NCBI GenBank assembly: GCA_964525635.1
Contig: CAZGJX010000015.1
Coordinates: 1 to 50,509, forward strand
DNA: 50,509 nucleotides
Reading direction: 5' to 3'
DNA from: an uncultured archaeon
GTDB lineage: Archaea > Asgardarchaeota > Lokiarchaeia > Sigyniarchaeales > SOKP01
Positions 6,677 through 24,513 of the stretch are shown here, piece by piece. Position 1 is the stretch's first letter. Every line of letters begins with the position of its first letter. The position numbers and the translations under genes are program-made. The notes under the pieces are model-generated. The model worked only from the letters and a program-made list of their open reading frames with translations. It ran no database searches and was not told where the DNA came from.

Positions 6677-6872
6677 TCAGAATTAGGTATATAATGATTA
6701 GATCTTAAATATTAATATTCTATTTCATACTCTCGTAATAAAAATCATTAAATTAATAATGTTATAATTAAAGCTATAGAAAAAATCCGTAAGAACAGAG
6801 TTTCACTTGAAATAGAGAGAAATATAGTGGATAGATTAATATAGAAGAATAAAATATAACTAAATAAGTCAA

Positions 6873-8282
6873 CTATCTAACTAACAAATCTTTTATCATA
6901 TCAGGAATTCTCCTTAAAAGACTAATATTAACCAAGCGTGTAAAATGAAATTTAAAACCATGCATTTTAAGAACTCTTTCAATACCCTGCCAAGGATTCT
7001 TTGAAAATAAGGTTTCTTTATACGCTTTAGATAAGTAATATTTTAACTCTTCTGATGATAGGTGTGGATACTTAATGACAGGATCTGACCAATTAAATTT
7101 GCTCCAATCTTTAGTGAATAATAAATTATCTTTTAAAACCTGCTCCATTACTTTTGTACCCGGAAATGGAGTTAATAAGGAAAAAGTGGGAAGATCGATA
7201 TCTAAAGATTTTGCAATTTTAATAGAAGACTCCAAATCCTCCTTTTTATCTTCAATATTAGCTCCTAAAATAATGTTACCCTGAACAAAATAACCTATAG
7301 CATGTAAGATTTTTAATGCTGATTGGATCTCAGCAAATTTAATTTGCTTATTTAATTTTTCTAATGTTCTATTAGAGAAACTTTCAAATCCCAAAAATAG
7401 ATGAATAAATCCTGCATCAGCCATTTTTTTAAATACTTCGGGATATTTTACAATCATATCAACACGAGCTTGTGTCATAAAATATTTATTAATTCTGTTT
7501 TTTATGATAGCATCACAAAATTCCATTACAAATTTCTTATTTACCATGAAATTATCATCAACTATAAAAATAAGACTAGCTCGATTTTTAATTTCTTTAG
7601 ACTTTAACTCTTTAATTATACTCTTGATTGTACGCTGTCGATATTTTTTTCTAAAGAAATGATGGATACAACAAAAATTACAAGAATATGGACAACCCCG
7701 ACTTGTTTCAATGCAATCGACTGGAAGAGCAAAATAATTATATTTTTTTTTTGCTATTTTTGATCTATAATAACGAGTTGGTATTAGAGTTTTTTTAAAA
7801 TCTATTAATTCACGGTCAAGATTATGGATAATTTTACCATTCTGTTTAAATGATAAACCAAGGATACCAATAGGATTATTTTTTTTAATTAATTCTCGAA
7901 ATGTTTTTTCACCTTCCCCTCTCACAATAAAATCGATTGAATGATATTCTAGTGTTTCATCAGGAACTAAAGTTGGATGCCATCCTCCAACAACAGTTTT
8001 AATATTATAACTTTTGACAATATCAGCGATTTTATAAACATTATATATCTGGGAACTAAATTTGCAACTAATTCCTACATAGTCAGGTTTAAAATCTTCG
8101 ATTATTTTTTTAAATTCTTTAGAGTTCCGTGCTTCTATCCGTTTATCGATTATTTTCACTACTGCTATATCATTTATATATGCGGCAATAGATTCTAATC
8201 CTAATGGAGGAGCAAGAATACTATATTGAGGTACAAATTTATTTACATTAGGACAGTCTGGCTCTACGAGTAAGACACGCAA
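6873..8282 (-). CDS. Cobalamin-dependent (class B) radical SAM protein, BchE/HpnP-like
   Basis: 'APPLGLESIAA', 'VVGGWHPT', 'RGEGE', 'ETSRGCPYSCNFC', 'VDDNF', 'LTPFPGT'. Confidence 0.9.
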   Translation of the reverse strand: MRVLLVEPDCPNVNKFVPQYSILAPPLGLESIAAYINDIAVVKIIDKRIEARNSKEFKKIIEDFKPDYVGISCKFSSQIYNVYKIADIVKSYNIKTVVGGWHPTLVPDETLEYHSIDFIVRGEGEKTFRELIKKNNPIGILGLSFKQNGKIIHNLDRELIDFKKTLIPTRYYRSKIAKKKYNYFALPVDCIETSRGCPYSCNFCCIHHFFRKKYRQRTIKSIIKELKSKEIKNRASLIFIVDDNFMVNKKFVMEFCDAIIKNRINKYFMTQARVDMIVKYPEVFKKMADAGFIHLFLGFESFSNRTLEKLNKQIKFAEIQSALKILHAIGYFVQGNIILGANIEDKKEDLESSIKIAKSLDIDLPTFSLLTPFPGTKVMEQVLKDNLLFTKDWSKFNWSDPVIKYPHLSSEELKYYLSKAYKETLFSKNPWQGIERVLKMHGFKFHFTRLVNISLLRRIPDMIKDLLVR

Positions 8283-8660
8283 ATTAAATTCATCTATTTT
8301 TATAAAATTATATTTTAAAAAAAAAAATTTAAGATAATATTCTTTTAAATATAATGAATTATCTTTTTTTTTTTTATTCTTTTTATGTATTGATTAATTT
8401 AATGTAAAAATTTTTTGGTTATTCATACAGATTTAAAAATTTTTAAACTTTATTTAATTTTATAATATTAGAAGTTATTGTAGTAAAGATAATTATACAA
8501 AGATTAGAAAAAATAATAGAAATGTAAGTAGAATTAAAAATGAACTTAGATTCAGAAAAATTCAAAAAATTCAAACATTCTTGGAAAATATAAGGTCTTT
8601 CTTAATTTTTGATCAGAATAATTAATATTAAAGAAAAAAAAAACCTATAAAAAAGGAAAA

Positions 8661-8666
8661 AGGTGA
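8661..8666 (+). promoter_or_regulatory. Shine-Dalgarno-like AGGTGA before ATT start
   Basis: aggtga-attaa-ATT; the same AAGGTGA motif precedes ATG 11128. Confidence 0.55.
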
Positions 8667-8671
8667 ATTAA

Positions 8672-10078
8672 ATTAATTTTCTTGTAGCAACAAATTGGGA
8701 TTTTAATCTCATAGAAGAGTTAGAAAAATATCCAGTAAATAATTTATATGGTGTCGCAGACTACTCTATTGTGGGTGGGGGGCGTCCTTCTTTTCTATTG
8801 CCAAAAATAACAGAAGAGAAAATACAAGAATATATAAGAGAAGTACATAAGAAAAAAATGAAATTTTCTTATTTATTAAATGCTCCTTGTATGAATAATA
8901 TGGAATATGACTCTCATTATCATAGAGTACTTATTGATTATATTCAATGGATTAGTGATATAAGGGCAGATGGTGTAATTGTAACCATTCCCTTTCTAAT
9001 ACAACTTATAAAAGAACAATTTCCTAATTTAAAAATCCGGGTATCTACAATAGCTCATGTTAACAGTGTAAATAGAGCAAAATTTTATGAAATGTTAGGA
9101 GCAGATGAGATAACTCCAGATGTAATGATTAATCGTGATTTTAAAACATTGGAAAGAATGCAAAAAACTGTTAAGTGCAAGATTGTTCTACTTCTCACTG
9201 ACGGATGTTTATATCAATGTCCTTTTAGATATTATCATTATAATATATTAGGACATGCATCCCAAGCACATCAACAATTTGAACGTAATTATATAGACAC
9301 TTGTATTTTAAATTGTAGTATTATTAAATTCTCTGATCCAGCAGAAGTACTTAAGGCACGATGGGTACGACCTGAGGATTTGGTTCACTATGAATCGATT
9401 GGAATAAATGACTTTAAAATAGCTGGACGTCGAATGTCAACTCCATGGATTGTTAGAGCTGTAAAGGCATTTTCCTCCCGAAAATATGAAGGCAATCTCA
9501 TTGATATAATACAAGGTTTTTCTATGTCGCATGGTGGTTTAGAACAAAAAGACCCCAACATTAAAATAAGTGAAACTCTTGGTAAAGAAGTAAAATCTAA
9601 ATTAATCATTGACAATACAAAATTAGATGGCTTTATAGATTTCTTTAAAAAGCAGAATTGTATAGCAATGTGTAATGATTGTAATTATTGTAATGAATGG
9701 GCAAAAAAAGCTGTTTATTTAGATAAAGAAGAATCTGCATCTTATGTAAAATCAATCAAGAATTATCTTGATGATATTATAACGAGTAGAGAATTTGGGC
9801 TTAATGTAGGGGAATCTGTAAAAAAAAGTAAAATTGGATTAAAATGGAATCTTAAAATTGAAGATATTTTTAACCAGCTAATAAAATTATCGCCTCCTCA
9901 ATTTCAAGGTATTGCAAAAGTGGCGATTTCATCATTAGCCGAAGAAAAAGCAAAAAAAAGAGGATCGCAAGAAGTTAATAATCAAGATATTTTAGAAGCA
10001 TTTATTGAAGGTACTCCTGGACCTTTTCAAGCCGAAATGAGGGAGGGTCTTAAAAAACATGGGCTTATAAAAGAGTAA
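8672..10078 (+). CDS. Peptidase U32-family Fe-S protein (UbiU/TrhP-like putative hydroxylase) with C-terminal DUF2621/PCP_red-like domain
   Basis: 'GGGRP', 'YLLNAPC', 'VSTIAHVNS', 'NRDF', 'GCLYQCPF', 'WVRPEDL', 'FKIAGRR', C-terminal CxxxCxxCxxC. Frame is open upstream of GTG 8771 to ATT 8672 ('INFLVATNWD', matching 'FRLSLACNW' of paralog 20932). Confidence 0.85.
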   Translation: MNFLVATNWDFNLIEELEKYPVNNLYGVADYSIVGGGRPSFLLPKITEEKIQEYIREVHKKKMKFSYLLNAPCMNNMEYDSHYHRVLIDYIQWISDIRADGVIVTIPFLIQLIKEQFPNLKIRVSTIAHVNSVNRAKFYEMLGADEITPDVMINRDFKTLERMQKTVKCKIVLLLTDGCLYQCPFRYYHYNILGHASQAHQQFERNYIDTCILNCSIIKFSDPAEVLKARWVRPEDLVHYESIGINDFKIAGRRMSTPWIVRAVKAFSSRKYEGNLIDIIQGFSMSHGGLEQKDPNIKISETLGKEVKSKLIIDNTKLDGFIDFFKKQNCIAMCNDCNYCNEWAKKAVYLDKEESASYVKSIKNYLDDIITSREFGLNVGESVKKSKIGLKWNLKIEDIFNQLIKLSPPQFQGIAKVAISSLAEEKAKKRGSQEVNNQDILEAFIEGTPGPFQAEMREGLKKHGLIKE

Positions 10079-10285: not shown

Positions 10286-11017
10286 ATGAAACATAGGAGC
10301 AGACATGAAAAATTAAAGATATATACAATATTGGTTATTACTATTTTATATCTTCCATTTACATTATTTCCTATGTTTTTAAAGGATATTCCCTTTTTCT
10401 CTTCATTAGTTAATAATTATATTATTGCTGGTAGATCATTTTTTATTTCTGATTTACCCTGTATTAATATATTATGGTTTTTGCCAGAAGAATGTCGTAT
10501 CACTTATTTTAGTATAGGGCATCTAATTGATATCTTCATTATAATAAATATTGTTCCTTGTGTTGAAACTACTATTTATCATTATATTGTAAAAGTATGT
10601 AATGAAGAAGAAACTAAAGAATTAAGTTATATGGATATTTATGTTAACAAATCTAGAGAGAAATTTAATTTATTATATTTTAATTTAAATTATGAAATTG
10701 ATATAGAAAATGATCATTCATATGAATCTCATAATATATATATTAAAAATTATCAAAATAACAAGCTTAGACTAAAGGAGTCAAATAATGACTACAATTA
10801 TCAAAAAATAAATGAATATATTCATACCAAAAATCAAAAGAGATTATTTAATAAAATATTTAATTCCAAATTAAAAACTACTTTTAAATTGTTTAATAAT
10901 TCTTTTAATCACTCTTTTTCTAAAAATACTCTGGTATTCCAGAAGAAAAATTATAATCAATATCCCAAAATTAAAACTATTTCTTATAAATATTCTCAAT
11001 GGGAGGGAAAAACATGA
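10286..11017 (+). CDS. Hypothetical protein, N-terminal hydrophobic segments, Asn/Lys-rich C-terminus
   Basis: 243-codon open frame in extremely AT-rich DNA; no recognisable motif. Confidence 0.45.
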   Translation: MKHRSRHEKLKIYTILVITILYLPFTLFPMFLKDIPFFSSLVNNYIIAGRSFFISDLPCINILWFLPEECRITYFSIGHLIDIFIIINIVPCVETTIYHYIVKVCNEEETKELSYMDIYVNKSREKFNLLYFNLNYEIDIENDHSYESHNIYIKNYQNNKLRLKESNNDYNYQKINEYIHTKNQKRLFNKIFNSKLKTTFKLFNNSFNHSFSKNTLVFQKKNYNQYPKIKTISYKYSQWEGKT

Positions 11018-11127: not shown

Positions 11128-12525
11128 ATGGAATGGAAAGAAGAAATTGAAAATTTATATGAAATAATCACAGATCAGACTCCTGAAGCGTTCCGTTCAT
11201 CAGTCAAAACTATGCTTCGTGAAGCATCTGAAAAAACAGCACGTCTTAGGAATTCTGGATTTGTGAGTAGAGATGATTTACTATCTGCTCTATTTGAAAT
11301 AACTCCTGAAGCATTTCAACCTACAGTTGTTGAAGATTTAAAAAAGATTGGTATTGATACTAATCGGTATATTAAATTGTCAGAAATTAGAAAAAAATAT
11401 TCACGAACATGGGATGAAATTAGTGGAGCATTTTTACCTGGAGTATATCATTTTACCATATATCTAACTGATCGATGCAACCAAAATTGTCTTCATTGTG
11501 CTGCTGCGGTAATGGAGAAACGTCCTGAATTACCCCCGGAAACTTGGATTGAAATTATTGAGGATCTTGAACAAAGCTTACGAAAACGTGGTCGTCGAGG
11601 ATGTTATATATGGTTTGGAGGAGAACCTACTATTCGTAAAGATCTTAAAGATTTAATAAAATATTGCGGTGAAAAGGGCTATTATCAAGCACTTGCAACT
11701 AATGGAATTTTGTTTAATGAAGAACTGGCGAAATTATGTGCAGATGTTAAGATGAGCCATGTTTTTATAAGTTATGATAGTACGGATCCTAAACGGGCTG
11801 CAAAAATTAGAGGACATCCAAAAGCACAAGAAGCGGCAGAAAAAGCCATAAATTTGGCTTCAAAATATGGGCTTTTTATCATTGGTAATGTAACCGCACA
11901 AAAAGAGAACTTCGATGAATTAGAAACCTTACAAAAATATTTTGAATCTAAGGGCGTAATTCCCTTTTACAGACCCCTAATCAAACAACGTTCGGCGGAT
12001 TTAAATTGGGAAGAAATCGGCTTAACTATTGATGAATATCGACAATTCTATGATTTTAAATATAAAAACATTATAGAGACTATCAGAAAAGGAGAAGCAA
12101 CTTCTCTTAATAAATTCTATACATGGGATATGGTACCATTCATGGAGTGTCCTATAAATGATGAGGAAAGGACTGCGATTGAATGGGGTACAGGATGCCA
12201 AGCCTGCCGCTCAATTTCCGGGATTGATACCAATGGAGATGTATTCCCTTGCGATTATCCCTCTGAATTAATCTTAGGCAACATTCTTGAGCAAAGTTGG
12301 GATGAGATTATGGAAACCGAAATGTTCAAAGCTATTAGAGATAGAAAAATAAAAGGGAAATGTGCTACTTGTCATCACCTTGACATGTGTGGTGGTGGTT
12401 GTCGGGTGCATGCTGAGAATGAAACTGGTGATTTTTTAGCGGCTCTCCCGTTTTGTTGGCATCAGAATGATCATAAACATGAAAAAAAAATAACAGAAAA
12501 AAAAGTGATTGAATTACTTGAATAA
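11128..12525 (+). CDS. Radical SAM/SPASM protein (PqqE/AhbC-like) with N-terminal DUF2621/PCP_red-like domain
   Basis: 'CNQNCLHC', 'GGEP', 'ATNG'; SPASM 'CQACR..GDVFPC..CATCHHLDMCGGGCR..CW'. Confidence 0.9.
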   Translation: MEWKEEIENLYEIITDQTPEAFRSSVKTMLREASEKTARLRNSGFVSRDDLLSALFEITPEAFQPTVVEDLKKIGIDTNRYIKLSEIRKKYSRTWDEISGAFLPGVYHFTIYLTDRCNQNCLHCAAAVMEKRPELPPETWIEIIEDLEQSLRKRGRRGCYIWFGGEPTIRKDLKDLIKYCGEKGYYQALATNGILFNEELAKLCADVKMSHVFISYDSTDPKRAAKIRGHPKAQEAAEKAINLASKYGLFIIGNVTAQKENFDELETLQKYFESKGVIPFYRPLIKQRSADLNWEEIGLTIDEYRQFYDFKYKNIIETIRKGEATSLNKFYTWDMVPFMECPINDEERTAIEWGTGCQACRSISGIDTNGDVFPCDYPSELILGNILEQSWDEIMETEMFKAIRDRKIKGKCATCHHLDMCGGGCRVHAENETGDFLAALPFCWHQNDHKHEKKITEKKVIELLE

Positions 12526-12565
12526 TTGAGTAATTTAATTAAAATAGATTGAAGGTTTGATATAT

Positions 12566-13966
12566 ATGGAATGGGAAAAGAAAACTGAAGAATTATTTGC
12601 GAGAATTGTAGAGAAAATGCCAGAAGGATTTCGTCCTTCAGTAAAACCATTGATTATAGAAGCAGCTGAAAAAAGATGCGTTGAGCGAAACGAATCTTAT
12701 ATTAATGAATCAGATGTAATTACAGGAATTTTTGATATTATTCCTGAAGCATTTAAATCTATAATGGTTGAAGATTTAAAATCTCTGAGTATTGATGTTG
12801 AACGATATATTGAGCTTAAGGAAATCAGAGATCGACTTAAATTATCATGGGAAAAATTGGAAAAAGCATTTCATCCGGGTAATATTCATTTTGCGATGTA
12901 TATTACCGATAGATGTAATATGAAGTGTATACATTGTGCCGCAGATGATCAAATACCTCGACAGGAGTTATCAAAAGAGCAATGGTGCCAGATAATGGAT
13001 AATATAGAATCTGGACTTAGATCCCAGGGTAGACATGCATGTTTCATTTGGTTTGGGGGAGAACCAACTCTACGAGAAGATATTGGGGATTTAATGAGCC
13101 ATTGCAAAGAAAAAGGATATTATCATGCTATTATTACTAATGGCGTTGAATTTGATGATAAATTCGCTAAAATGTGCAAAGAAAATGATTTAAGTCACGT
13201 ATTTGTAAGTTTTGACAGTGCCAATCCTAAGAAAAATGATCAATTACGCGGATATCCAAATTCATTAGAATACACCAAAAAAGCTATAGATAGTTGTTTG
13301 AAATATGGATTATTTGTATGTGCTTCTATTACTATTATGAAACAGAATATTGATGAATTGGAAGAACTTAATAATTTATCGTTAAAATGGGGAGCTCAAC
13401 CTTTTTTTAGACCAGTTGTTAAACAAAATCGCGCTGCAGAATATTGGGATGAAATTGGTTTGAATAAAGAAGAATATAAGAGGTTATATGATTATAAATA
13501 TAAACATGCTATTCAAAAAATTAGGCAAGGTGAAGCAGGGATCCTACCGGCTTATGAAATATATGAGATGATGCCCTTTATGAATTGCTTAAGAAATGAT
13601 AAGGAAATAACAGCGCTTGAATGGGGTGTAGGATGTTTAGCATGCAGAACGATGATGGGCGTTGGTGTAGATGGAACGCTATTTCCTACGGGATATCCTA
13701 CAAAATTAACTCTTGGTCATGGATTAAAGGACAAATTTGAAGATATATTAAATTCACAACTCTATAAAGATATTCGTGACAGAAAAAAAATTAAAGGAAA
13801 ATGCGCATCTTGTCATCATCTGAAATATTGCGGAGGGGGGTGTCGCGTCACTGCAGAATTTATAACTGGAGATTTTTTTGGTTCATTTCCTTTTTGTTGG
13901 CATGAAAATGACCATGAACATGAAGTTGAGACTAATAAAAAGAAGGAAATTGAATTACTTGAATGA
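12566..13966 (+). CDS. Radical SAM/SPASM protein, tandem paralog of 11128, with N-terminal DUF2621/PCP_red-like domain
   Basis: 'CNMKCIHC', 'WFGGEPT', 'CASCHHLKYCGGGCR'; starts 'MEWEKK' like 'MEWKEE'. Confidence 0.9.
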   Translation: MEWEKKTEELFARIVEKMPEGFRPSVKPLIIEAAEKRCVERNESYINESDVITGIFDIIPEAFKSIMVEDLKSLSIDVERYIELKEIRDRLKLSWEKLEKAFHPGNIHFAMYITDRCNMKCIHCAADDQIPRQELSKEQWCQIMDNIESGLRSQGRHACFIWFGGEPTLREDIGDLMSHCKEKGYYHAIITNGVEFDDKFAKMCKENDLSHVFVSFDSANPKKNDQLRGYPNSLEYTKKAIDSCLKYGLFVCASITIMKQNIDELEELNNLSLKWGAQPFFRPVVKQNRAAEYWDEIGLNKEEYKRLYDYKYKHAIQKIRQGEAGILPAYEIYEMMPFMNCLRNDKEITALEWGVGCLACRTMMGVGVDGTLFPTGYPTKLTLGHGLKDKFEDILNSQLYKDIRDRKKIKGKCASCHHLKYCGGGCRVTAEFITGDFFGSFPFCWHENDHEHEVETNKKKEIELLE

Positions 13967-14000
13967 TAAAGGAGATTGCTAAAGCATAGGGATGATAATA

Positions 14001-15416
14001 ATGCGAGTATTAATAATATCTGGAAGTCGAGAGATAGTACATGTAATGGTTTCACCCATAGGTGAAGCTTATCTAGCATCATATCTTCAATCACAAGGAC
14101 ATGAAGTTTTATTATTAGATCTAACTCTAAGTAATAATTTTAGAAATGATATTATAAAAGCTATTGATAATTTCAATCCTGAAGTGATAGGTCTTTCTAT
14201 TCGTAATATAGATTCAACAACATACCCTGGAAATTTATTTTTTTATTTACCTTTTAAAAATATTTTTAATTATATAAAAGAAAATATAGAACCTGAAATA
14301 CCCCTAATCTTAGGTGGGGCTGGGTTTTCAATATTCTCAGAAGAAATACTTAGAGATTTAAATCATGATATTGGAATCGTTGGAGAAGGAGAATATGCTT
14401 TTAATGAATTATTAAAATATATTGAAAAAGATAAAGATCCTCGAAAAATAGATAGAGGTATATGTTTTATAGATAAAAAAGGGAGATATCATCAAAAACC
14501 AACATGGCATATTAATAATTTAGATGATTTACCAAATCCTACAAGAGAATTGATGGATAATAATAATTATCTAATTGATCCAATAGATAAGGAAGGTAAT
14601 TTTTGGGGGAATATTCAAACTAAGCGTGGTTGCTCGAAAAACTGCATTTATTGTAGTTATCGATATATTGAAGGCCCTAAAGTTCGATATCGATCCCCAG
14701 AAAAAATAGCTGAAGAACTAGATTTAATGGTAAATAATTTTGGAATCAAAAATGTTTTCATTGTAGATAGTCTGCTCAATTTAAATTATAATCACTTAAA
14801 AAATACTTGTCATGAAATTATTAACCATAAAATTGATTTTAATTGGGGAGCTAATTATGCTCCAAGTAGTCAATATTTAGATTTATTACCCCTTATGAAA
14901 GAAAGTGGTGCAACTCATCTAGCAACGGGTATGGAATCCTTATCTGAAGATATATTAAAAAATATGAATAAAGATAGAATACCTAATGAGTCAATTCTAA
15001 CTTCTGAAAAGTGTATTGATCTAGAAATTGAACAATTAATCCATATAATTGTTGGAGGTCCTGGAGAAACTTCTGAAACAGTTAGAGCTTCTTTCGATCG
15101 ATTAGAAACTATTAGAAATTATAGAGGAAATATATGGCAAGGAGATGGAGATGTAATTATTTTCTTGGGAATGAGAATATATCCTCATACGCCTCTTCAG
15201 AAAATTGCTGAGAAAGATAAGGTGATTTCTAAAGGACAAAATTTACTTAAACCAACATTTTACATTTCTCCACAAATTAAAGAAGTAGATCTTTTTAGTT
15301 TAGTAAGAGAATATTGTGAAGTAAATCCAAGATGGATGGCTCCAGGATTAGGCTTAAATAATCCAGATGGCTTTGACGAAATGAGTCAAATCCAGTTTGC
15401 TCTATATCAAAAATAA
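14001..15416 (+). CDS. Cobalamin-dependent radical SAM protein, TsrM-like / lipid-biosynthesis B12-rSAM type (putative C-methyltransferase)
   Basis: 'LLDLT', 'IGLSIRNID', 'LGGAGFSIF', 'IQTKRGCSKNCIYC', 'GGPGET', 'GMRIYPHTPL', 'PTFYISP'. Confidence 0.82.
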   Translation: MRVLIISGSREIVHVMVSPIGEAYLASYLQSQGHEVLLLDLTLSNNFRNDIIKAIDNFNPEVIGLSIRNIDSTTYPGNLFFYLPFKNIFNYIKENIEPEIPLILGGAGFSIFSEEILRDLNHDIGIVGEGEYAFNELLKYIEKDKDPRKIDRGICFIDKKGRYHQKPTWHINNLDDLPNPTRELMDNNNYLIDPIDKEGNFWGNIQTKRGCSKNCIYCSYRYIEGPKVRYRSPEKIAEELDLMVNNFGIKNVFIVDSLLNLNYNHLKNTCHEIINHKIDFNWGANYAPSSQYLDLLPLMKESGATHLATGMESLSEDILKNMNKDRIPNESILTSEKCIDLEIEQLIHIIVGGPGETSETVRASFDRLETIRNYRGNIWQGDGDVIIFLGMRIYPHTPLQKIAEKDKVISKGQNLLKPTFYISPQIKEVDLFSLVREYCEVNPRWMAPGLGLNNPDGFDEMSQIQFALYQK

Positions 15417-15471: not shown

Positions 15472-16974
15472 ATGAGTAAAAAAGCAAGAAGCGGATTACC
15501 ATTTGGTAAAGTTACTCCGTTAGAAATTATAGAGAAAATTGGAAAAGATGGATTATCTGGAGGAATTGAAGATGTCTGTCTCTTTCCTACATATAGTTGT
15601 AATCTTAATTGTTATATGTGTCATGTACAACATGTACGCGATAAGGATAACAATTATATATCAATGGATGATTGGAAGGCAGCTTTTAAAAATCTAAATG
15701 TATCTAAAATGTTTCACCTAGGGGGAGAACCTTTTGTAAGAGAAGATATGATGGATTTAATTGAATTTTTTGATTCCAAAGGGATTAATCAAATTCTTTC
15801 CACCAATGGTCAAAATATTACTGAGTCAACTGCTAAAAGGCTAGCTGCATTGAAGAATTTAGCTTGTATACAAGTATCTCTTAATGGTACAGAAGAAATT
15901 GATGGAAAAATAAGAGGATCTCCTCATTCATATAGAAGAACTGTAGAGGGTATAAAACTATTGAAAAAAGCTGGTATACAAACATGGATTCATGCCGTTA
16001 TTTTAAATGAAAATATCAATGATCTAGTAAATATAGTGAAACTTGGTACAGAATTAAAGGTGGATATGATTAATTATCTTTTTGGTCAGGTAATGTCTGA
16101 GCAAGATGCAGAAGAAACAAGAGCTTCTATTAAAAAGTGGACAGGTGAAGATGTAAATGTTGGAGGATATATAGGAGAAATAAATTATTCTGAAGAAGAA
16201 TTAGTGAATAGTATTAACGCTGTAAAAGAAGAAGCGAAGAAAACGGGAATTCAAGTAATGTTTTTCCCTAGAATTTTTGGAGAGCATCCAGAAATATATT
16301 GGCGAGGTACTTTACTTGAACAAGAGAGGCCTATTTGTCAAATGACATTAATGCCCCCCCTCACACCTATAATTGGTCCTGAAGGGGATGTTGTTGCGTG
16401 TTGTATTATTGATAAGAGTTTTGGCAATATTAAAGAAAAAAGTCTTGAAGAAATTTGGGATTCTGAGACCGTTCGTAATTTTAGGAAAGGATTGATTAAT
16501 GATAAATTAATGGCAGTATGTAAACGATGTCCAAGTGGAGATTTAATAAAGGTTGATGCAAAGAAAGATACATCCTTATCGAATAAAGAAGATTGGAACT
16601 CTTATTTATCATTATTAACTAAAGAACTTAATAATTTATCTGAGTTACAACCGATATTAGAAAAAGTTTCTCCTATTATATTTCAATATCAAATTACTGA
16701 TCAACCAAGTTTCAATTATTGGCATTACTTTAAAAAAGATGGTGTTAGTTTGGGTTTAGGTGAAATTGATGATGATGATGTCTCAAAATTAATCCATAAA
16801 ACTGATTTTGAGACATTAAAGAGTGTAAATGCTGGTATAAACAATCCAATCCAAGCTACGATGGAGGGAACTTATGAAGTTACTGGAGACATGACTAAAT
16901 TAATGGCTTGTGCTCCACTTATTCCAGTAACAGCAAAAGCTCATAATGTTGTAATTAAAGATTTTTTAAAATAA
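15472..16974 (+). CDS. Radical SAM/twitch-type protein fused to C-terminal SCP2 lipid-binding domain
   Basis: 'CNLNCYMC', 'LGGEP', 'STNG'; 'C...GDVVACC..GNIKEKSLEEIW...CKRC'; C-term 'DFETLKSVNAGINNPIQATMEGTYEVTGDMTKLM' (SCP2 pattern). Confidence 0.85.
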   Translation: MSKKARSGLPFGKVTPLEIIEKIGKDGLSGGIEDVCLFPTYSCNLNCYMCHVQHVRDKDNNYISMDDWKAAFKNLNVSKMFHLGGEPFVREDMMDLIEFFDSKGINQILSTNGQNITESTAKRLAALKNLACIQVSLNGTEEIDGKIRGSPHSYRRTVEGIKLLKKAGIQTWIHAVILNENINDLVNIVKLGTELKVDMINYLFGQVMSEQDAEETRASIKKWTGEDVNVGGYIGEINYSEEELVNSINAVKEEAKKTGIQVMFFPRIFGEHPEIYWRGTLLEQERPICQMTLMPPLTPIIGPEGDVVACCIIDKSFGNIKEKSLEEIWDSETVRNFRKGLINDKLMAVCKRCPSGDLIKVDAKKDTSLSNKEDWNSYLSLLTKELNNLSELQPILEKVSPIIFQYQITDQPSFNYWHYFKKDGVSLGLGEIDDDDVSKLIHKTDFETLKSVNAGINNPIQATMEGTYEVTGDMTKLMACAPLIPVTAKAHNVVIKDFLK

Positions 16975-17005
16975 AAAGGAGAAATAAAAAAAAGAGCTAT
17001 AAATT

Positions 17006-18514
17006 ATGAATGAAAAACAAGTTGGATGTGACGTATCTCTACGAGAAGCAATGCCCCTTGGAAAGGATATACCATTAAATGTAATAAAGCAAATAATTGA
17101 AGATGGTCTTTCTGGGGAATTTAGTGATGTATGCTTTTATGCAAGTTTCAACTGTAATTTAAATTGTTATATGTGCCTTATAAAACATATGAAAGGTCGA
17201 AAAATAACTCCCATGTCTATGGAGCAAATAAAGGAGGGATTTAAAGATGCTAAAGTCTTATTTCACCTTGGAGGAGAACCATGGGTTATGAGTAATATGA
17301 TGGAAATGATAGAATATTTCGATGCTAATGGTGTTAATCAAATAATGTCCACAAATGGCACTAAAATTACAAAAGAAATCGCTGAGAAATTAGCTGGATT
17401 AAAACATTTTGTTAATATACAAGTCTCATTGAACGCATCAAATGGAATAGATGGCAAAATTAGGGGATGGCCAAAATCTTTCGAAAAAACTGTTGAGGGT
17501 ATAAAGATTCTTGTTGATGCAGGCTTATCTACATGGATACATTGCACAATTGTAAATGAAAATATTAACGATTTAGCAAATGTAGTTAAACTTGGTGCAG
17601 AGCTAGGAGTTAAAGCAGTCAATTTCATCTTTGCACATATAGTTAGTGAGGAAGAAATTAAGGCTTCTAAAGAGCTAATGAAGAAATGGATTGGAGAAGA
17701 AGTTGAAATAGGTGGATATGTGGGAGAATTAACATATTCTGAAGAAGAATTGATAAACAGTATTAATGCAGCAAAAGAAGAAGGAAAAAAACATGGAATT
17801 ACTGTGATGTTCTTTTCAAAGTTATTTGGTGATAAGCCTGAAATATATTGGCGAGGAACGTTATTAAAGCAAGAACGACCGATTTGCCAATTAACTTTAA
17901 TGCCCCCAATGACACCTAATATTGGACCAGATGGTTCAGTATATAACTGCCCATATATAGTCAAAAGCTTTGGAAACATTACTGAAATGCCCCTTAAAGA
18001 GATTTGGGATTCTGATTCAATTCGTGCTTTTCGGAAAGGAATGATAAAGGACAAGTTATTACCTATATGTAGACGTTGCCCATGTAGTGATATGGTTGAT
18101 TTATCTTTATCCAAAGAACATGAATTAACAGATATAGTAAAATGGAAGATATATCTTGAAAGATTAACTAAAGAATTGAATAATATGTCTGAAGTTCCAC
18201 CAATTTTGAATAGCATTGAACCTACTATTTTCCAATATCACCTTAATGATCATCCAGAGTTGAATTTTTGGCATGCCTTTGATAAAAATGGTATTCGGAT
18301 AGGAATGGGTGAAAATACACAGGATAGTGACTTTATTAAGCTTATCCATAAAGCTGATTTTGAGATTGTGAGAAAGGTAAATTCTGGCGAACAGAATCCT
18401 GTCCAAGCAACTATGGCAGGACTTTATATAGTTGATGGAGATATGGCTAAATTAATGGCTTGTGCTCCAATTTTACCTTTGCAAGTAAAAGCTCATGAAA
18501 AAGTAATAAAATAA
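17006..18514 (+). CDS. Radical SAM/twitch-SCP2 fusion, tandem paralog of 15472
   Basis: 'CNLNCYMC'; near-identical 'PEIYWRGTLL.QERPICQ.TLMPP'; SCP2 'NPVQATMAGLYIVDGDMAKLM'. Confidence 0.85.
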   Translation: MNEKQVGCDVSLREAMPLGKDIPLNVIKQIIEDGLSGEFSDVCFYASFNCNLNCYMCLIKHMKGRKITPMSMEQIKEGFKDAKVLFHLGGEPWVMSNMMEMIEYFDANGVNQIMSTNGTKITKEIAEKLAGLKHFVNIQVSLNASNGIDGKIRGWPKSFEKTVEGIKILVDAGLSTWIHCTIVNENINDLANVVKLGAELGVKAVNFIFAHIVSEEEIKASKELMKKWIGEEVEIGGYVGELTYSEEELINSINAAKEEGKKHGITVMFFSKLFGDKPEIYWRGTLLKQERPICQLTLMPPMTPNIGPDGSVYNCPYIVKSFGNITEMPLKEIWDSDSIRAFRKGMIKDKLLPICRRCPCSDMVDLSLSKEHELTDIVKWKIYLERLTKELNNMSEVPPILNSIEPTIFQYHLNDHPELNFWHAFDKNGIRIGMGENTQDSDFIKLIHKADFEIVRKVNSGEQNPVQATMAGLYIVDGDMAKLMACAPILPLQVKAHEKVIK

Positions 18515-18571: not shown

Positions 18572-19744
18572 ATGAAATGGAAATCTGAAATTAAACAACT
18601 TTTTGAGAATGTGGTCTCAAATATTCCTGAAATGGTAAGACCAGCTGTAAAACCTACACTTTTTGAAGCTGCAGAAAAAAAATGTATGGAGAGAAATGGA
18701 AAAGAAGTAGCTGAAGTAGATTTAGTAGTAGCGTTGTTTGAAGTGACACCACCAACTTTTCAACCAACTATGATTGAAGATCTAAAAAAAGTTGGGGTTG
18801 AATATGATAAATACCTAGCAAAAGTGGAATCTAATTTTAAGTGTAATACTGATCTTAATCAGATGATAAAGGATATATCAACGATTTGTGATGTTACTGG
18901 AGTAAAATGTGATAATGAAGCAATCTGGAAAGCTTTCAATGCTTATGAAAAATTTTTCAAAGGAGCTCCATTATCAATTAGAACGACGACTAAACCCGTT
19001 GAAAAAAGGGATGTAGCAGTAAGATATGTAGAATTTTTTGTACCTCATTATCCAGATCCTTATACAACAGCTATCAATGAAGGATTAATTAAGAAGGATG
19101 GACACGCTATCCATAAGATGATAATAGAGGTAATAAACACGTTTGACATAATGGGATATGGTGTAGATGTAGATGCGAGTAATGGATTATCAAAGATTTG
19201 GCCATTTATAGTACCTGGATCAATTGATCCAATCTATTCAATGAAGTCATACCCAAAAAGTATGAAAAAATATCAAGAATACTTTAATAAGCATGGACTA
19301 ACAGCTTTTAGTTTATTTGCATTTGATTTCCTTCATAATACAGTGAACATCTATTTCATGCTTAAAAAACCATCCAAATCTACTTATGAAAATTGTATTG
19401 CTCTTGTAGAGGATTTAGGATTTAAACCCGACTCCAAAGAGGTTATGGAAGCTTGTTGTGAAGCTGCCCATCTAAATTATACATTTAATTGGGATACAGA
19501 AAAAATCGAGCGTGTATGTTTTGGGATAACATGTCAAGATGCTAAAAAGATTCCAGTACATCTACATCCATTGATAGAAGAATTTGTTGAAAAAACACCA
19601 CTCCAAAGTGATTCAAATAAATTTATCTGGGGAGTAACCTTCTCCCAAAACGGTCGCTATTATAAGATTGAAAACGATTATAATGGAACAATGGTCGATT
19701 TCTTAGAAATGGGTTGTAAAGCGGGTCTTGATAAATTTAACTAA
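18572..19744 (+). CDS. Soluble ABBA aromatic prenyltransferase (NphB/CloQ, PTase_Orf2-like) with N-terminal DUF2621/PCP_red-like domain
   Basis: Co-linear with remembered NphB/CloQ motifs: 'DPYTTAINEGL', 'YGVDVDASNGLSKIWPF', 'FNKHGL', 'FDFLHNTVNIYF', 'LVEDLGF', 'YTFNWDTEKIERVCFG', 'WGVTFSQNGRYYKIENDY'. Confidence 0.87.
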   Translation: MKWKSEIKQLFENVVSNIPEMVRPAVKPTLFEAAEKKCMERNGKEVAEVDLVVALFEVTPPTFQPTMIEDLKKVGVEYDKYLAKVESNFKCNTDLNQMIKDISTICDVTGVKCDNEAIWKAFNAYEKFFKGAPLSIRTTTKPVEKRDVAVRYVEFFVPHYPDPYTTAINEGLIKKDGHAIHKMIIEVINTFDIMGYGVDVDASNGLSKIWPFIVPGSIDPIYSMKSYPKSMKKYQEYFNKHGLTAFSLFAFDFLHNTVNIYFMLKKPSKSTYENCIALVEDLGFKPDSKEVMEACCEAAHLNYTFNWDTEKIERVCFGITCQDAKKIPVHLHPLIEEFVEKTPLQSDSNKFIWGVTFSQNGRYYKIENDYNGTMVDFLEMGCKAGLDKFN

Positions 19745-19787: not shown

Positions 19788-20939
19788 ATGCAGATAATAA
19801 TCGATGGAGACTATAATAAAGAATTAATTTCTCAAATTAAAAGGAAAGATTTACCAGTTTCACATATTATTGTTCATGTTCCTCAAAATCCAATTGGAAA
19901 TAGTTCAATTTTTCTGCCAGAAATCCTTCCTTCTCTAAAGGAATTTAGAGATTATACTAAGATTATTCAAGATAATGGAATAATTCCCATAGCAGGTATT
20001 GATTCAACATGTCAAGGAAATTTGGAAGCCCATGCTAAACAAAATAAAGCAATTAATATATTATTTGAAAACCTACATGAATTAGAATACTCTAATTACC
20101 TAATATCATCCCCAAATAATGCAGCATTTATAAATGCAAATTTTCCTGAAGATAAAATTTACTTATCTTATTCTCAATATATCACATCATTAAATCGTGC
20201 AAAAATTTTTTTTGAATTGGGAGTAGACAATATTATAATTCACCCTGACATAATTAGGAATTTTAATATATTAAAGAATTTCTTGAAATTAAAGCAAAAT
20301 CTAAATAATAATGAAAAAATTGATTATATTCTTCCATTAAATCTTGGGTGCAATTGGGGATGTATTCATTGGTATGAACATCATAATCTTCAAAGTCATC
20401 GAACAATAAAGTCATCTATTTTACCAAATCAAAATAATATTTCTGACATTGAGGATGAGTTTGATTATCCTATCCTTGATTGTTGGAGGAAGCGTCTTAA
20501 ACAACCTTCTGAAATTCTTAAAGCAGGATGGATATCCCCATTTAATATTCAATTATATCATGATTTGGGGTATGAAAAATTCGTACTTTTTACCAGTAGA
20601 TTTTCTACGGAGAAGATATTGAATATCATTAAATCATATATTGATAAATTACATATGGATGATTTTAAAGAATTTCTGAATATTCCTCAACCTTATGGGG
20701 ATTATTGGTCAGGAGAAGAAATTCATAATTCAATGATCTTTCTTGATCCAAATAATATCAGAGAATTTTGCGATAATTTCCCCTATAATACTCATTATCC
20801 ATTTGAGAAGCAAATTAATGAATATTGTAATAAATATATTGATAAATTTAATAATAAACACATTAAAGAACGAGAAGAAATCCTCAAAATAATAATGGAA
20901 AAGAAAGAAAAACTATATAAAGGTGTATTTAATGGCTGA
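19788..20939 (+). CDS. Divergent U32-family protein (possibly non-catalytic partner)
   Basis: Aligns with the other U32s ('ITSLNRAK', 'IRNF', 'LGCNWGC', 'EILKAGWISP') but lacks GxGRP and FKIxGRR; ATG 19788 preferred. Confidence 0.72.
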   Translation: MQIIIDGDYNKELISQIKRKDLPVSHIIVHVPQNPIGNSSIFLPEILPSLKEFRDYTKIIQDNGIIPIAGIDSTCQGNLEAHAKQNKAINILFENLHELEYSNYLISSPNNAAFINANFPEDKIYLSYSQYITSLNRAKIFFELGVDNIIIHPDIIRNFNILKNFLKLKQNLNNNEKIDYILPLNLGCNWGCIHWYEHHNLQSHRTIKSSILPNQNNISDIEDEFDYPILDCWRKRLKQPSEILKAGWISPFNIQLYHDLGYEKFVLFTSRFSTEKILNIIKSYIDKLHMDDFKEFLNIPQPYGDYWSGEEIHNSMIFLDPNNIREFCDNFPYNTHYPFEKQINEYCNKYIDKFNNKHIKEREEILKIIMEKKEKLYKGVFNG

Positions 20940-22992
20940 AAAATTTCGCTTATCATTAGCATGTAATTGGAAGATTGACTTATTGAATCTAATAGATCTG
21001 GATCAATCGTTAAAAGATAATATTCATGATTTATATGGTACTTATGATTCTAGTTTTACTGGATCAGGGAGACCCTTTTTTTTAATGGCAAAGAGAGAGA
21101 GATTAGAGGTAGAAACATACATAAATAAAGTTCATGATTTAGGATTGAAATTCACTTGGTTATGGAATGGTATGTGTCAAGGATATTACAAATTTAATTC
21201 TGAACATCAAACTAAAGCCCTAGAGGAATTAGATTGGTTAGGAGATTTAAGTGTAGAATATTTAACAATAACAGATCCTTACCTTGCCGAGTTTGCAAAA
21301 AATCATAAACCAAAATTAAAATTGAAAGTTTCAGTTATTTCTGAAGTAAATTCATTATCACGTGCTTTAGATTGGCAAGAGATTATTGGTGATGAAGGTG
21401 TTTTAACATTATCTATAATGATAAATCGTAATTTTCCTCTCTTAGAAGAGATTAGGAATAGTGTAAAATGTGATATTGAACTACTTACAAATGATTGTTG
21501 CCTGAATGATTGTCCTTTTAGATTTTTTCATTATACAGAATGCTCACACGCTAGCCAAACTCATGATATACTAGAAGGCTATTATAATGATTGGTCAACA
21601 ATTGCTTGTCAAAATCAAAAATGTTTCAATCCAGAACAGATAATTATGTCTAAATGGATTCAACCATCAGATCTGGATAAGTATATTAATATTGGAATAA
21701 ATTATTTTAAAATTTCAGGAAGGAGATATGGAACTGATTGGTTATATAAGGCATTAAAAGCATATAGTAAAAAATCATTTAATGGGAATCTCGGTGATAT
21801 TTTTAATGGGTATTCTTTTGTTTCAGATCCTTTAATACTAGCTGGAAATCAATTTTCTGAATTTTCTATTAAACAAGAAAAAATGGAAGTAGATGCTGAT
21901 AATCAAAGTATAATGTTAAGTGTTCCAGATTTTAATGCAGTGTTAAAAGGTGATGAATTAAATGATTTTATATCTAATATACCTTTCCAAGGAACTAAAT
22001 GTACTGAAATTTGTGGTATTAAATGTCACTACTGTAATGATTATGCAAAGAAAGCTTATTATGTTCCTCCTGATAAATTATCAGAGTCATATAGAAATTA
22101 TATGGCATTTCTTTATGATTATCTAAATTTAGGAGAAATGTTTCTTTCAAAAGAAGAAAGAACTCTTAAAATTCCAATTAGAGAGATAGAATCAGATACT
22201 TATTTTGGAATCGCTTGGTTATCTGAAGCAGAAACTTTTTTAGAGGAGGTTATGATTATAATTCCTGAATCAATGCAACTTGCCGCTAAAAAAGGTATTG
22301 GATTCACAGCAGAACGAACTGCAGAAAAACAAGGTTTAAACCATATTGATCTAAATTTACTTATCTCTATACTTATTCAATTAGTACCTCAACCTTTTAA
22401 ACATGATCTTCTCGATTTCTTGGTAGAAAAAGACATCGATTTATCACATTTTATCAATGAAGAAGATATAGAATACATGAAATCTTTACCATATGGTACT
22501 GATTTAATGGCTCAAAAAGCAAAACAAAAAAGATTAGTAGAGCCTAATTCAAATTTAAATATAAATAATTTAAATATACAAAAAAATAAGGAAGTGAAAT
22601 TAAATATGGATACAAAAGAAGAATGGGAGGCGTACCTTACACGCTTTATGAAAGCCTATAATGAATTACCAGATTTATCTTCATTATTAAAACCTATCTC
22701 CCCTTTGATATTTCAGTACAATCTTTCAGATAAACCTGAAATGAATTATTGGCAATTTGTTGAAGAGGATAAAATGAGATGGGGAATGGGAAATTATGAT
22801 GGAAATGATGCTCCCAAGATTATCCACAAAACTGACTTTGAGACATTGATAAAAGTTAATTCTGGTGAATCAGATCCAATTCAAGCTACTATGGCAGGTA
22901 ATTATACTGTTGAAGGAGATGTAACTAAACTTATGGCATGTGCTGCTTTACTCCCTCTTAACGCAAAAGCCCATAATAAGGCTATAGAATGA
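20932..22992 (+). CDS. U32-family Fe-S protein + DUF2621/PCP_red-like domain + SCP2 domain (triple fusion)
   Basis: 'GSGRP', 'CLNDCPF', 'FKISGRR', 'CTEICGIKCHYC'; middle 'AWLSEAETFLEE...IPESMQLAAKK...VPQPFKHDL'; C-term 'DPIQATMAGNYTVEGDVTKLM'. Overlaps the upstream stop. Confidence 0.85.
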   Translation: MAEKFRLSLACNWKIDLLNLIDLDQSLKDNIHDLYGTYDSSFTGSGRPFFLMAKRERLEVETYINKVHDLGLKFTWLWNGMCQGYYKFNSEHQTKALEELDWLGDLSVEYLTITDPYLAEFAKNHKPKLKLKVSVISEVNSLSRALDWQEIIGDEGVLTLSIMINRNFPLLEEIRNSVKCDIELLTNDCCLNDCPFRFFHYTECSHASQTHDILEGYYNDWSTIACQNQKCFNPEQIIMSKWIQPSDLDKYINIGINYFKISGRRYGTDWLYKALKAYSKKSFNGNLGDIFNGYSFVSDPLILAGNQFSEFSIKQEKMEVDADNQSIMLSVPDFNAVLKGDELNDFISNIPFQGTKCTEICGIKCHYCNDYAKKAYYVPPDKLSESYRNYMAFLYDYLNLGEMFLSKEERTLKIPIREIESDTYFGIAWLSEAETFLEEVMIIIPESMQLAAKKGIGFTAERTAEKQGLNHIDLNLLISILIQLVPQPFKHDLLDFLVEKDIDLSHFINEEDIEYMKSLPYGTDLMAQKAKQKRLVEPNSNLNINNLNIQKNKEVKLNMDTKEEWEAYLTRFMKAYNELPDLSSLLKPISPLIFQYNLSDKPEMNYWQFVEEDKMRWGMGNYDGNDAPKIIHKTDFETLIKVNSGESDPIQATMAGNYTVEGDVTKLMACAALLPLNAKAHNKAIE

Positions 22993-23109: not shown

Positions 23110-23940
23110 AAAATGGTCTCTATAAGAATTATATAGAGTAAAAATCTTTTTTTATTAAATAAAAAAACTATAAATAAAAATAGTGAGGATAAAAAAAATG
23201 TTTTGTCCAAGTTGTGGTGAAGAGTTAAGAGAAGATAATCAAAGATTTTGCCACACTTGTGGAATTAATCTTCTTAGTAATATAGATGGCCCTCAACAAT
23301 ATACTAAAGTTATTCAAAAAACACCAAATTCAATTTCAAAATCAAATCTAAAAAATATTGAAATAATAAAAGGTCAACAAGGACACCATATTAAAATAGA
23401 ACGAATAGGACCATATTCAAAAAAGAGTTTAGCTTATTCAATTGTGTCTTTGGGATTAACTGCTTTGGCAATTGTTTTCATTTCGACAGGATTTGTTTAC
23501 AGTTTAATACGTAATAATATCCAATTACTTATCATACCAAGAACGATATTTGTAATTTCAATTAATATTGTAGGTTTGGTTTTTGGAATTCAATCTAAAA
23601 AGAATAGTTTAAAAGCAGGACGATTTGAAGAAATAAATGCTGTAGAGAAAGTAGGGAGTGTATTATGTATTTTTGGGATAGTAGCTAATATTATTGGTAT
23701 TATAATAGGTTTTTTAATATACCCTGCATCTATGATTATCTTGAATAATAATATACAATTTATTTATTAATTTTAATATTTTAAAAAATTCTTTTTTCTT
23801 ATTTTATCAATAAAATCTAGGTTTTTTGTAAGAATCTACTTTTTAATAATAAATGGTCTATATTAAAATTATATACACTATATCTTTATTTTTATTAAAA
23901 AAAAAAAAATAAATAAAATTAGTTAGGAGGAAAGAAATCT
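23110..23940 (+). repeat. Duplicated upstream regions of the two tandem zinc-ribbon genes (about 23110-23197 and 23851-23940)
   Basis: 'aaatggtctctataagaattatatagag...tttattaaa...taaataaaaatagtgagg' vs 'aaatggtctatattaaaattatatacac...tttattaaa...taaataaaattagttagg'. Confidence 0.65.
23198..23770 (+). CDS. Zinc-ribbon membrane protein, paralog 2
   Basis: 'MFCPSCGEEL..FCHTCG', 'YSKKSLAYSI', 'EKVGSV', 3 TM. Confidence 0.8.
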   Translation: MFCPSCGEELREDNQRFCHTCGINLLSNIDGPQQYTKVIQKTPNSISKSNLKNIEIIKGQQGHHIKIERIGPYSKKSLAYSIVSLGLTALAIVFISTGFVYSLIRNNIQLLIIPRTIFVISINIVGLVFGIQSKKNSLKAGRFEEINAVEKVGSVLCIFGIVANIIGIIIGFLIYPASMIILNNNIQFIY

Positions 23941-24513
23941 ATGTTTTGTCCAAGTTGTGGTTCAGAATTGAGAGAAGGTAATCAAAAATATTGTCATTGT
24001 TGTGGAACTAATCTTCTTAACGCTACTGAAGACACTCAATTATATACTAGAATTTCTCAAAAAACACCAAAAAAAATACCAAAATCTACAATAGAATACT
24101 CAACTGTTCCAGAAATTAACAAAAAACAAATTAAACCAAAAGGTGGGATAGGGGCCCATTCAAAAAGATGTTTAGCATTTGCAATTGTATCATTGGCTTG
24201 CGCTGGTGTTGCTTCTGTTTTAGGTACAAGTTTAAATTTTTTCTTTAATTGGTTTTTTGATGGTAATAGTAGGATTTTATTAATACCTCGATTTATACCA
24301 ATGACATCTATTTATATAGTTGGATTAATTTTTGGAATTTTGTCTAGAACGAATAGTTCTAAAGCAGGATTAAAAGAATCAAAAAATAATGTTGAGAAAG
24401 TTGGAAGTATACTTGGAATCTTAGGAATTATCTCTAATGCAATTGGGCTCGCTGGTGTATTGATATTTGCTTTATCCTTCATTGATTTTCCATCTATTCC
24501 ATACATCGATTAA
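23941..24513 (+). CDS. Zinc-ribbon membrane protein, paralog 3
   Basis: 'MFCPSCGSEL..YCHCCG', 'HSKRCLAFAI', 'EKVGSI'; SD AGGAGG upstream. Confidence 0.82.
   Translation: MFCPSCGSELREGNQKYCHCCGTNLLNATEDTQLYTRISQKTPKKIPKSTIEYSTVPEINKKQIKPKGGIGAHSKRCLAFAIVSLACAGVASVLGTSLNFFFNWFFDGNSRILLIPRFIPMTSIYIVGLIFGILSRTNSSKAGLKESKNNVEKVGSILGILGIISNAIGLAGVLIFALSFIDFPSIPYID

Follow-up and report, generated by a model that had tools for sequence, protein, structure and literature searches.

What might an enzyme do that joins a radical S-adenosylmethionine (SAM) domain to an SCP2 domain? The question is raised by two adjacent genes, here called A and B, in a 50,509-nucleotide stretch of archaeal DNA (GenBank assembly GCA_964525635.1, contig CAZGJX010000015.1; Lokiarchaeia, Sigyniarchaeales), the whole of which we refer to as the window. 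It forms part of contig 15 of a 4.45 Mb genome with a reported completeness of 100%, has a G+C content of about 28%, and encodes proteins whose named relatives come from Promethearchaeota and Thorarchaeota. Gene A (15472-16974, + strand, 500 amino acids) and gene B (17006-18514, + strand, 502 amino acids) are neighboring open reading frames whose products are 56% identical, and both give Pfam matches to Radical_SAM, to part of SPASM and, with scores close to the cut-off, to SCP2. With modest confidence, we favor the explanation that A and B are twitch-type radical SAM oxidoreductases and that each would use its own SCP2 domain to keep a hydrophobic intermediate that bears a prenyl group away from the membrane, in the manner of UbiJ and UbiT.

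The two proteins share one layout, in which a CNLNCYMC motif is followed by four further invariant cysteines, by a variable linker and, at the C-terminus, by a domain some 125 amino acids long. The original prediction for this region had described a CNLNCYMC motif, a short twitch-like cysteine set and a C-terminal SCP2 domain in both proteins, and had pointed to the sequences IHK(T/A)DFE and KLMACA in three SCP2 copies of the window; the analyses below bear out each of these features. Homologs begin at MSKKARSGLPFGK, which matches ATG 15472 of A, and a GAGGG lies 8 nt upstream of this codon. The start of A was thus placed at 15472, and TTG 15397 is disfavored by the same two observations. A 292-amino-acid open reading frame lies antisense within gene B (17338-18216, - strand) and is most likely a chance open frame of AT-rich coding DNA.

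The C-terminal domain occupies 16594-16971 (+ strand) in A, corresponding to about residues 375-500 after a variable linker modeled with low confidence (about residues 361-374), and 18128-18511 (+ strand) in B, where it was located by alignment and by a six-frame SCP2 match of 20.9 bits. When a profile built from 14 sequences of this domain was compared with the Protein Data Bank (PDB), the top matches were all SCP2 proteins, with an E value of 0.0065 over the full length. The domain was modeled with a predicted local distance difference test (pLDDT) score of 92.6 and a predicted template modeling score of 0.85, and a Foldseek comparison of this model with the PDB returned more than 40 SCP2 chains at a probability of 1.00. 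The best of these was UbiJ-SCP2 (E 2.6e-6, TM-score up to 0.73), and the others included ligand-bound SCP2 domains, the SCP2-like domains of alkylsulfatases and the SCP2-like domain of MFE-2. The domain therefore models as SCP2, and the assignment is settled by the profile, the model and the fold matches together. The homologous domain on a U32 protein encoded nearby scores 28-30 bits in Pfam, and several family members carry precomputed PF02036 annotations.

Conservation indicates that this domain is under selection. Across the family, mean pairwise identity is 0.58 for the SCP2 domain and 0.59 for the catalytic core, whereas it is 0.25 for the linker that joins them. IHK(T/A)DFE and KLMACA are common to all three SCP2 copies of the window, and all but one of 27 family members (26 of 27) have the cysteine of KLMACA. 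This cysteine is replaced in protein P0016 and in one divergent free SCP2 protein, however, so a catalytic role for it is not supported and must be regarded as unproven.

The N-terminal portions of A and B have the hallmarks of radical SAM enzymes. The SAM-binding [4Fe-4S] cluster has its CX3CX2C motif at residues 43-50 of A (C43, C47 and C50; 15598-15621, + strand) and residues 50-57 of B (C50, C54 and C57; 17153-17176, + strand), and the three cysteines of the motif are invariant in 30 of 30 aligned homologs. The Pfam Radical_SAM model (PF04055) scores 71.4 bits in A and 68 bits in B against a cut-off of 29.5, and the SAM-binding motifs GGEP and STNG are also present. We predict that A and B are twitch-type radical SAM enzymes whose catalytic machinery is intact. 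The residue after CYMC differs by clade, being His in A and Leu in B.

Naming the reaction is more difficult. The full-length model of A (pLDDT 88.6), in which the SCP2 domain comes after a stretch of low confidence at residues 361-368, has a radical SAM fold that matches SkfB, SuiB, anSME and MoaA at a Foldseek probability of 1.00, with SkfB, SuiB, anSME, BlsE and DesII as the nearest fold neighbors. When sequence and fold are considered together, this part of the proteins groups with the SPASM/twitch enzymes SkfB, SuiB, anSME, BlsE, DesII, MoaA and PqqE, all of them distant, and the matches in the ESM Atlas are generic radical SAM/SPASM clusters. A scan of NCBIfam brought no model near its cut-off: the best, AhbC, reached 96 bits against 650, and the AhbC, AhbD and NirJ models as a group gave 84-96 bits against cut-offs of 500-650. 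Assignments to AhbC, AhbD, NirJ, MftC or PqqE were dropped because every one of these scores falls below its cut-off, and the reaction of A and B cannot be read from homology.

More can be said about the auxiliary iron-sulfur site, which lies in a twitch-like domain at 16327-16551 (+ strand) in A and 17876-18100 (+ strand) in B. Apart from the cysteines of the SAM cluster, those invariant in the 30-sequence alignment are C289, C310, C350 and C353 of A, equivalent to C294, C315, C355 and C358 of B. The Pfam SPASM match is partial in both proteins (54 bits in A and 47 bits in B, from profile position 9 or 10 to 67), and four invariant cysteines constitute a twitch pattern rather than the seven-cysteine pattern of SPASM, the CX2CX5CX3C motif being absent. 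The family profile matches the twitch region of BtrN with an E value of 1.2e-7, and in a direct alignment C310, C350 and C353 of A correspond to C187, C232 and C235 of BtrN. The spacing is C-x20-C-x39-CxxC in the A/B family versus C-x17-C-x44-CxxC in BtrN. Each enzyme is thus predicted to bind one auxiliary cluster through four cysteines, as BtrN does. The NCBIfam twitch subfamily model NF033640 gave 62.5 and 66.4 bits and did not reach its cut-off of 170, which says little about the type of domain since this model describes an N-terminal-twitch subfamily. A fifth fixed cysteine in the domain is specific to each clade: C311 in 10 of 10 members of clade A, and C360 of B (position 355 in A numbering, forming CxxCxC) in 17 of 17 members of clade B. 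In the window, these sites are the C310-C311 pair of A at 16399-16404 and the sequence CRRCPC of B at 18068-18085.

The twitch enzyme BtrN catalyzes a two-electron oxidation, and its auxiliary cluster, which has four cysteine ligands, is the proposed electron acceptor (PMC9012708). By analogy, the most likely chemistry for A and B is abstraction of a hydrogen atom by the radical SAM domain and a net two-electron oxidation, in which the auxiliary cluster would be the electron sink that takes the second electron. Such chemistry could amount to a dehydrogenation, an oxidative cyclization or the formation of a C-C bond, and any single one of these reaction types deserves less confidence than the overall explanation that we favor. 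In the sequence of events envisaged here, a soluble ABBA prenyltransferase would make a hydrophobic prenylated aromatic compound, the flexibly linked SCP2 domain would take up the isoprenoid tail of this intermediate, and the tethered radical SAM active site would then work on it in the cytosol and not at the membrane.

The nearest solved structures also invite a different interpretation. SkfB, SuiB, CteB and anSME are what would be expected if A and B were maturases of RiPPs, peptides that are made by the ribosome and then modified post-translationally, with the SCP2 domain standing in for a peptide-recognition element. Pfam detects no RiPP recognition element (RRE) and no PqqD domain, however, and no plausible conserved small open reading frame was seen in the only sizeable intergenic gap (8283-8770), in a search for short frames that was not exhaustive. 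The cluster is tightly packed with enzymes of the kinds that act on small molecules, the PTase_Orf2 type of prenyltransferase acts on small aromatics, and A and B are predicted to have one auxiliary cluster instead of two. We therefore consider peptide maturation highly improbable.

The genes around A and B provide the main clues to the substrate. Immediately after B lies a gene (18572-19744, + strand; PTase_Orf2, 187 bits) for an aromatic prenyltransferase of the soluble ABBA type, whose N-terminus bears a small helical module that we call D. This enzyme is the probable source of the prenylated substrate. Two paralogous radical SAM/SPASM proteins with D modules, which resemble AhbD and NirJ in Pfam and NCBIfam comparisons, are encoded at 11128-13966 (+ strand), and a B12-binding radical SAM gene (13992-15416, + strand) directly precedes A. 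The closest NCBIfam model to the product of the latter gene is TIGR04072, which it matches with 270.8 bits where the cut-off is 360; BzaD comes next. TIGR04072 describes a lipid biosynthesis B12-binding/radical SAM protein of ladderane-type clusters. Further downstream, a triple fusion of U32, D and SCP2 (20923-22992, + strand; Pfam U32, and SCP2 with 28 bits) carries, by alignment, the third SCP2 copy of the same subtype, and upstream a U32-D protein (8771-10078, + strand; Pfam) represents an accessory gene of the Asgard-type cluster, as judged from related loci. A 243-amino-acid protein (10286-11017) has a hydrophobic N-terminal half, an Asn/Lys-rich tail and no Pfam match; it keeps its position in Asgard clusters at 31-43% identity. 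Three paralogous zinc-ribbon membrane proteins (4545-5117, 23183-23770 and 23941-24513) flank the cluster, and a homolog of them ends the cluster of locus L024.

Related loci, which were annotated by BLAST against the proteins of the window, reveal how much of this arrangement is constant. The Asgard-type order begins with a B12 radical SAM gene, a small membrane protein, two D-module radical SAM/SPASM genes and a second B12 radical SAM gene, and continues with one or more radical SAM-SCP2 genes, the D-ABBA prenyltransferase, a degenerate U32, U32-D-SCP2 and U32-D. In these clusters, a B12 radical SAM gene nearly always directly precedes the radical SAM-SCP2 gene. A complete chromosome labeled Thermoplasmata (G302) has a smaller set consisting only of a radical SAM/SPASM gene, the ABBA prenyltransferase, one radical SAM-SCP2 gene and a second, D-module radical SAM/SPASM gene. 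A metagenome-assembled genome (MAG) labeled 'uncultured bacterium' (G301; 50% G+C, with a TonB-domain protein nearby) carries A, B and a D-module radical SAM/SPASM gene on one contig, and another D-module radical SAM/SPASM gene with the prenyltransferase on a second. Based on the gene content of G302 and G301, the conserved core comprises the prenyltransferase, two AhbD-like SPASM enzymes and the radical SAM-SCP2 protein. At the loci of G302 and G301, no U32 gene was seen next to this core, to which the UbiU/V-like U32 enzymes and the B12 enzymes are Asgard additions. On the second contig of G301 (L082, contig 24), positions 6301-8609 encode a fused double ATP-binding cassette (ABC) ATPase and a CbiQ-type T component, which are parts of an energy-coupling factor (ECF) transporter, just upstream of the D-module radical SAM/SPASM-prenyltransferase pair; these parts may import a precursor. 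In the genome of the window itself, a second, partial cluster (L004; G000 contig 76, 12803-16078) places a paralogous U32-D-SCP2 gene beside a paralogous D-module radical SAM/SPASM gene.

The association with the prenyltransferase extends beyond these examples. The family occurs together with an ABBA prenyltransferase and D-module radical SAM/SPASM genes in the window, at L008, L009, L010, L018, L019 and L022-L025, and in G301 across its two contigs. Among the loci and genomes checked, the sole exception is an SCP2-less form at L028. This co-occurrence carries weight because PTase_Orf2 matches none of 14 control genomes. The original prediction had argued from the SCP2 fusion that the substrate is hydrophobic and probably prenylated and that it is handled away from the membrane. 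This fits the context, as the prenyltransferase both adjoins and co-occurs with the family and is itself fused to the same SCP2 subtype in relatives. The gene cluster probably tailors a prenylated compound without oxygen.

The distribution of the SCP2 subtype leads in the same direction. When its profile was searched against 1.84 billion representative sequences, about 13 had E values below 1e-20, and all of these are pathway proteins: radical SAM-SCP2, U32-D-SCP2, SCP2-ABBA prenyltransferase, SCP2-D and free SCP2. The domain is located at the N-terminus of the ABBA prenyltransferase in P0082 and in L010 (11518-13128), and it is joined to a D module with nothing else in two metagenome proteins (P0077 and P0080, 326 and 278 amino acids). 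Weaker matches to the profile are fusions of the ordinary kind, in which SCP2 is joined to a dehydrogenase, an aldolase or a flavodoxin-like protein; those checked include no further radical SAM protein. Free SCP2 genes of the B subtype, whose products are 72-77% identical to the domain of B, lie just downstream of B at L008 (11518-11916), L019 (7737-8075), L020 (11536-11880), L025 (11512-11910) and L026 (2541-2812). The window has no such gene, and the prenyltransferase follows B immediately. A free SCP2 gene of the U32 subtype follows U32-D in L024. If SCP2 holds the common intermediate, one would expect just such a pathway-specific carrier, which stands alone or is attached to one of at least three different catalysts.

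The same fusions can be read in another way. D, SCP2 or both are found on most of the cluster's enzymes, the exceptions being the three B12 radical SAM proteins and the degenerate U32, and because SCP2 also occurs fused to D alone or to the prenyltransferase, D might be a docking partner of SCP2. It could then be argued that the SCP2 fold serves in assembly or docking, for instance with the D module, or in dimerization, and carries no lipid, and that the substrate is a soluble aromatic or a tetrapyrrole-like cofactor. The existence of proteins made of SCP2 and D only is in keeping with this idea, as are the invariant polar residues of the SCP2 domain, which are unusually many (two His, plus Q, T and N), and the resemblance of neighboring proteins to AhbD, NirJ, BchE and BzaD, enzymes that act on tetrapyrroles or cofactors. 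However, these resemblances to named families are all far below the cut-offs, the best fold matches are to true lipid binders (UbiJ, SCP2 and the SCP2-like domain of MFE-2), and the fusion of SCP2 to the prenyltransferase is most simply understood as a means of product capture. A purely structural role for the domain is thus fairly improbable in our judgment.

How widely the family is spread bears on whether its substrate is a common lipid. A word-indexed search recovered 41 family clusters at 90% identity, from metagenomes and from MAGs labeled Promethearchaeota, Thorarchaeota and Thermoplasmata, and a library clustered at 50% identity contains the family as a single representative. Pattern scans of 185,579 species genomes found it in four besides that of the window. 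No member was found in a sample of 300 other Asgard genomes, of which three are from the same genus and 68 from the same family, and the neighboring prenyltransferase was not found in five close kin. This sparse distribution implies a rare accessory cluster and not a housekeeping pathway, and a primary respiratory quinone pathway was down-weighted on the same grounds.

It also affects the suggestion that A and B modify the isoprenoid chains of membrane lipids or free polyprenyls, in the manner of Tes/GDGT-MAS or of ring synthases, with SCP2 extracting the lipid and the prenyltransferase being peripheral. SCP2 domains bind many lipids (PMC6747719), the radical SAM core has GDGT-MAS among its matches by sequence and by fold, and the upstream B12 radical SAM protein has a lipid-biosynthesis family, TIGR04072, as its nearest. 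Nevertheless, the GDGT-MAS match is weak (E 4e-6) and covers the generic core only, the 300 Asgard genomes in which the family was not found all belong to makers of membrane lipids, and the co-occurrence with a rare ABBA prenyltransferase, described above, also counts against such a scheme. Membrane lipids are accordingly rather improbable substrates.

Why two copies should lie side by side is best addressed with the phylogeny. A maximum-likelihood tree separates an A clade from a B clade (support 100/99), and each clade contains members of different lineages as well as forms that stop directly behind the twitch domain. Both genes are present in the window, at L018 and L019, and in G301, whereas B is alone at L008, L010 and L020-L027; no locus with A alone was seen among those examined. 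The two B-only genomes of L008 and L010 (G303 and G304) have no second full-length copy anywhere, and no further radical SAM-SCP2 copy exists in the genome of the window. The tree and the B-only loci together indicate that the duplication is old, that B is the core copy, and that A is an optional paralog, through which a minority of clusters would gain a step or have one altered. From the pairing of close paralogs, the original prediction had proposed either a heterodimer or action at two positions. An obligate A-B heterodimer is unlikely and was rejected, since A is missing from most clusters and from two B-only genomes altogether, in which B must work by itself; for the second proposal, it is possible that A provides an extra step. 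The SCP2-less family member at L028 (3994-5085) has 363 amino acids, ends after the twitch domain and lies away from any cluster gene, with an FAD_binding_2 oxidoreductase and an IS66 transposase fragment as neighbors that give no clue to function.

Several points weigh against the explanation that we favor. In hmmscan, the SCP2 model PF02036 scores 18.9 bits in A and 17.3 bits in B against a Pfam cut-off of 21.3, and the six-frame scores straddle this value, with A over it at 22.2 and B under it at 20.9. SCP2-less forms exist in both the A and the B clades (P0039-P0041 and L028), so the carrier is not strictly needed in cis. The structurally closest radical SAM relatives are mostly peptide maturases, and the neighboring genes resemble those for tetrapyrrole and cofactor tailoring (AhbD, NirJ, BchE and BzaD) as much as those for lipid enzymes, in all cases far below the cut-offs. 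The domain architecture, the folds, the conserved cysteine sets, the synteny and the distribution are shown by the analyses above, whereas we infer the lipid binding, the prenylated substrate and the reaction type, the last solely by analogy with BtrN-type twitch enzymes.

A bolder version of our explanation can also be formulated. SCP2 domains might function as non-covalent carriers, the lipid counterpart of acyl carrier proteins (ACPs) and peptidyl carrier proteins (PCPs), passing the prenylated intermediate along within a soluble assembly held together by D modules, and the radical SAM-SCP2 enzymes might perform a radical cyclization or a C-C coupling between the tail and the aromatic head. 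Asgard archaea would then make a new, oxygen-independent class of meroterpenoid or quinone-like lipids. We regard so specific a scheme as doubtful.

Among the papers searched, we found none describing a radical SAM-SCP2 fusion or this gene cluster, and literature matches for ABBA enzymes with archaea were general reviews. The combination of a twitch radical SAM enzyme with an SCP2 carrier is thus undescribed and constitutes the new element here. Greasy substrates of radical SAM enzymes must leave the membrane, and a built-in SCP2 carrier would, if true, be a new solution to this problem. The domain is also a handle for identifying the substrate through the bound ligand. To our knowledge, little has been learned so far about the secondary metabolism and quinone content of Asgard archaea. 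Four genes, those for the ABBA prenyltransferase, for two SPASM enzymes and for the SCP2 fusion, form the compact core that the family marks. This core probably makes a prenylated metabolite in strictly anaerobic Asgard archaea, and it is small enough to reconstitute.

Comparison with known systems helps to place these enzymes. The best NCBIfam matches of the radical SAM core are AhbC, AhbD and NirJ of alternative heme and heme d1 synthesis, but these align only to the N-terminal core (about residues 40-213), have a full SPASM domain and lack SCP2. The BtrN-type twitch enzymes, which also include MoaA, SkfB, BlsE and DesII, share with A and B a CX3CX2C cluster in a partial TIM barrel, a truncated SPASM domain, and the four cysteines for a single auxiliary cluster, which align residue for residue. 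The relationship is nevertheless remote (E of about 1e-7 over the twitch part only), and A and B differ in their extra N-terminal 40 residues, their clade-specific fifth cysteine and the fused SCP2 domain, which is absent from those enzymes. Placing SCP2 at the C-terminus of a catalytic domain for a hydrophobic substrate has parallels in the thiolase-SCP2 protein SCPx, in MFE-2 and in the alkylsulfatases SdsA1 and Pisa1, which are among the fold matches. Their catalytic partners have thiolase, dehydrogenase/hydratase and metallo-beta-lactamase folds, and never a radical SAM fold.

A parallel in terms of logic is offered by UbiJ and UbiT, SCP2 proteins that assist ubiquinone biosynthesis, together with the U32 hydroxylases UbiU and UbiV. 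Shared with A and B are the SCP2 fold, for which UbiJ-SCP2 is the best match among solved structures, the link with U32 iron-sulfur proteins, the oxygen-free setting and the proposed use of a soluble assembly on a prenylated intermediate. The differences are substantial, as identity is about 14-18%, the carrier of A and B is fused to radical SAM rather than free, and no U32 gene was seen to adjoin the core in the minimal G302 and G301 clusters. Moreover, the A/B cluster contains no UbiA-type gene, decarboxylase (UbiD/X) or Ubi methyltransferase (UbiE, UbiG), its prenyltransferase is of the soluble ABBA type, and its distribution is that of a rare accessory cluster, unlike a respiratory quinone pathway. 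By analogy, then, the SCP2 domain of A and B would work like UbiJ and UbiT without being a member of either family. UbiJ binds ubiquinone intermediates through its SCP2 domain, UbiT is proposed to do likewise, and a known ubiT-ubiU fusion (PMC6747719) is a precedent for a fused SCP2 carrier. If A and B operate in this way, the idea of a soluble metabolon built on a lipid, as proposed for UbiJ and UbiT, would extend beyond ubiquinone and beyond bacteria.

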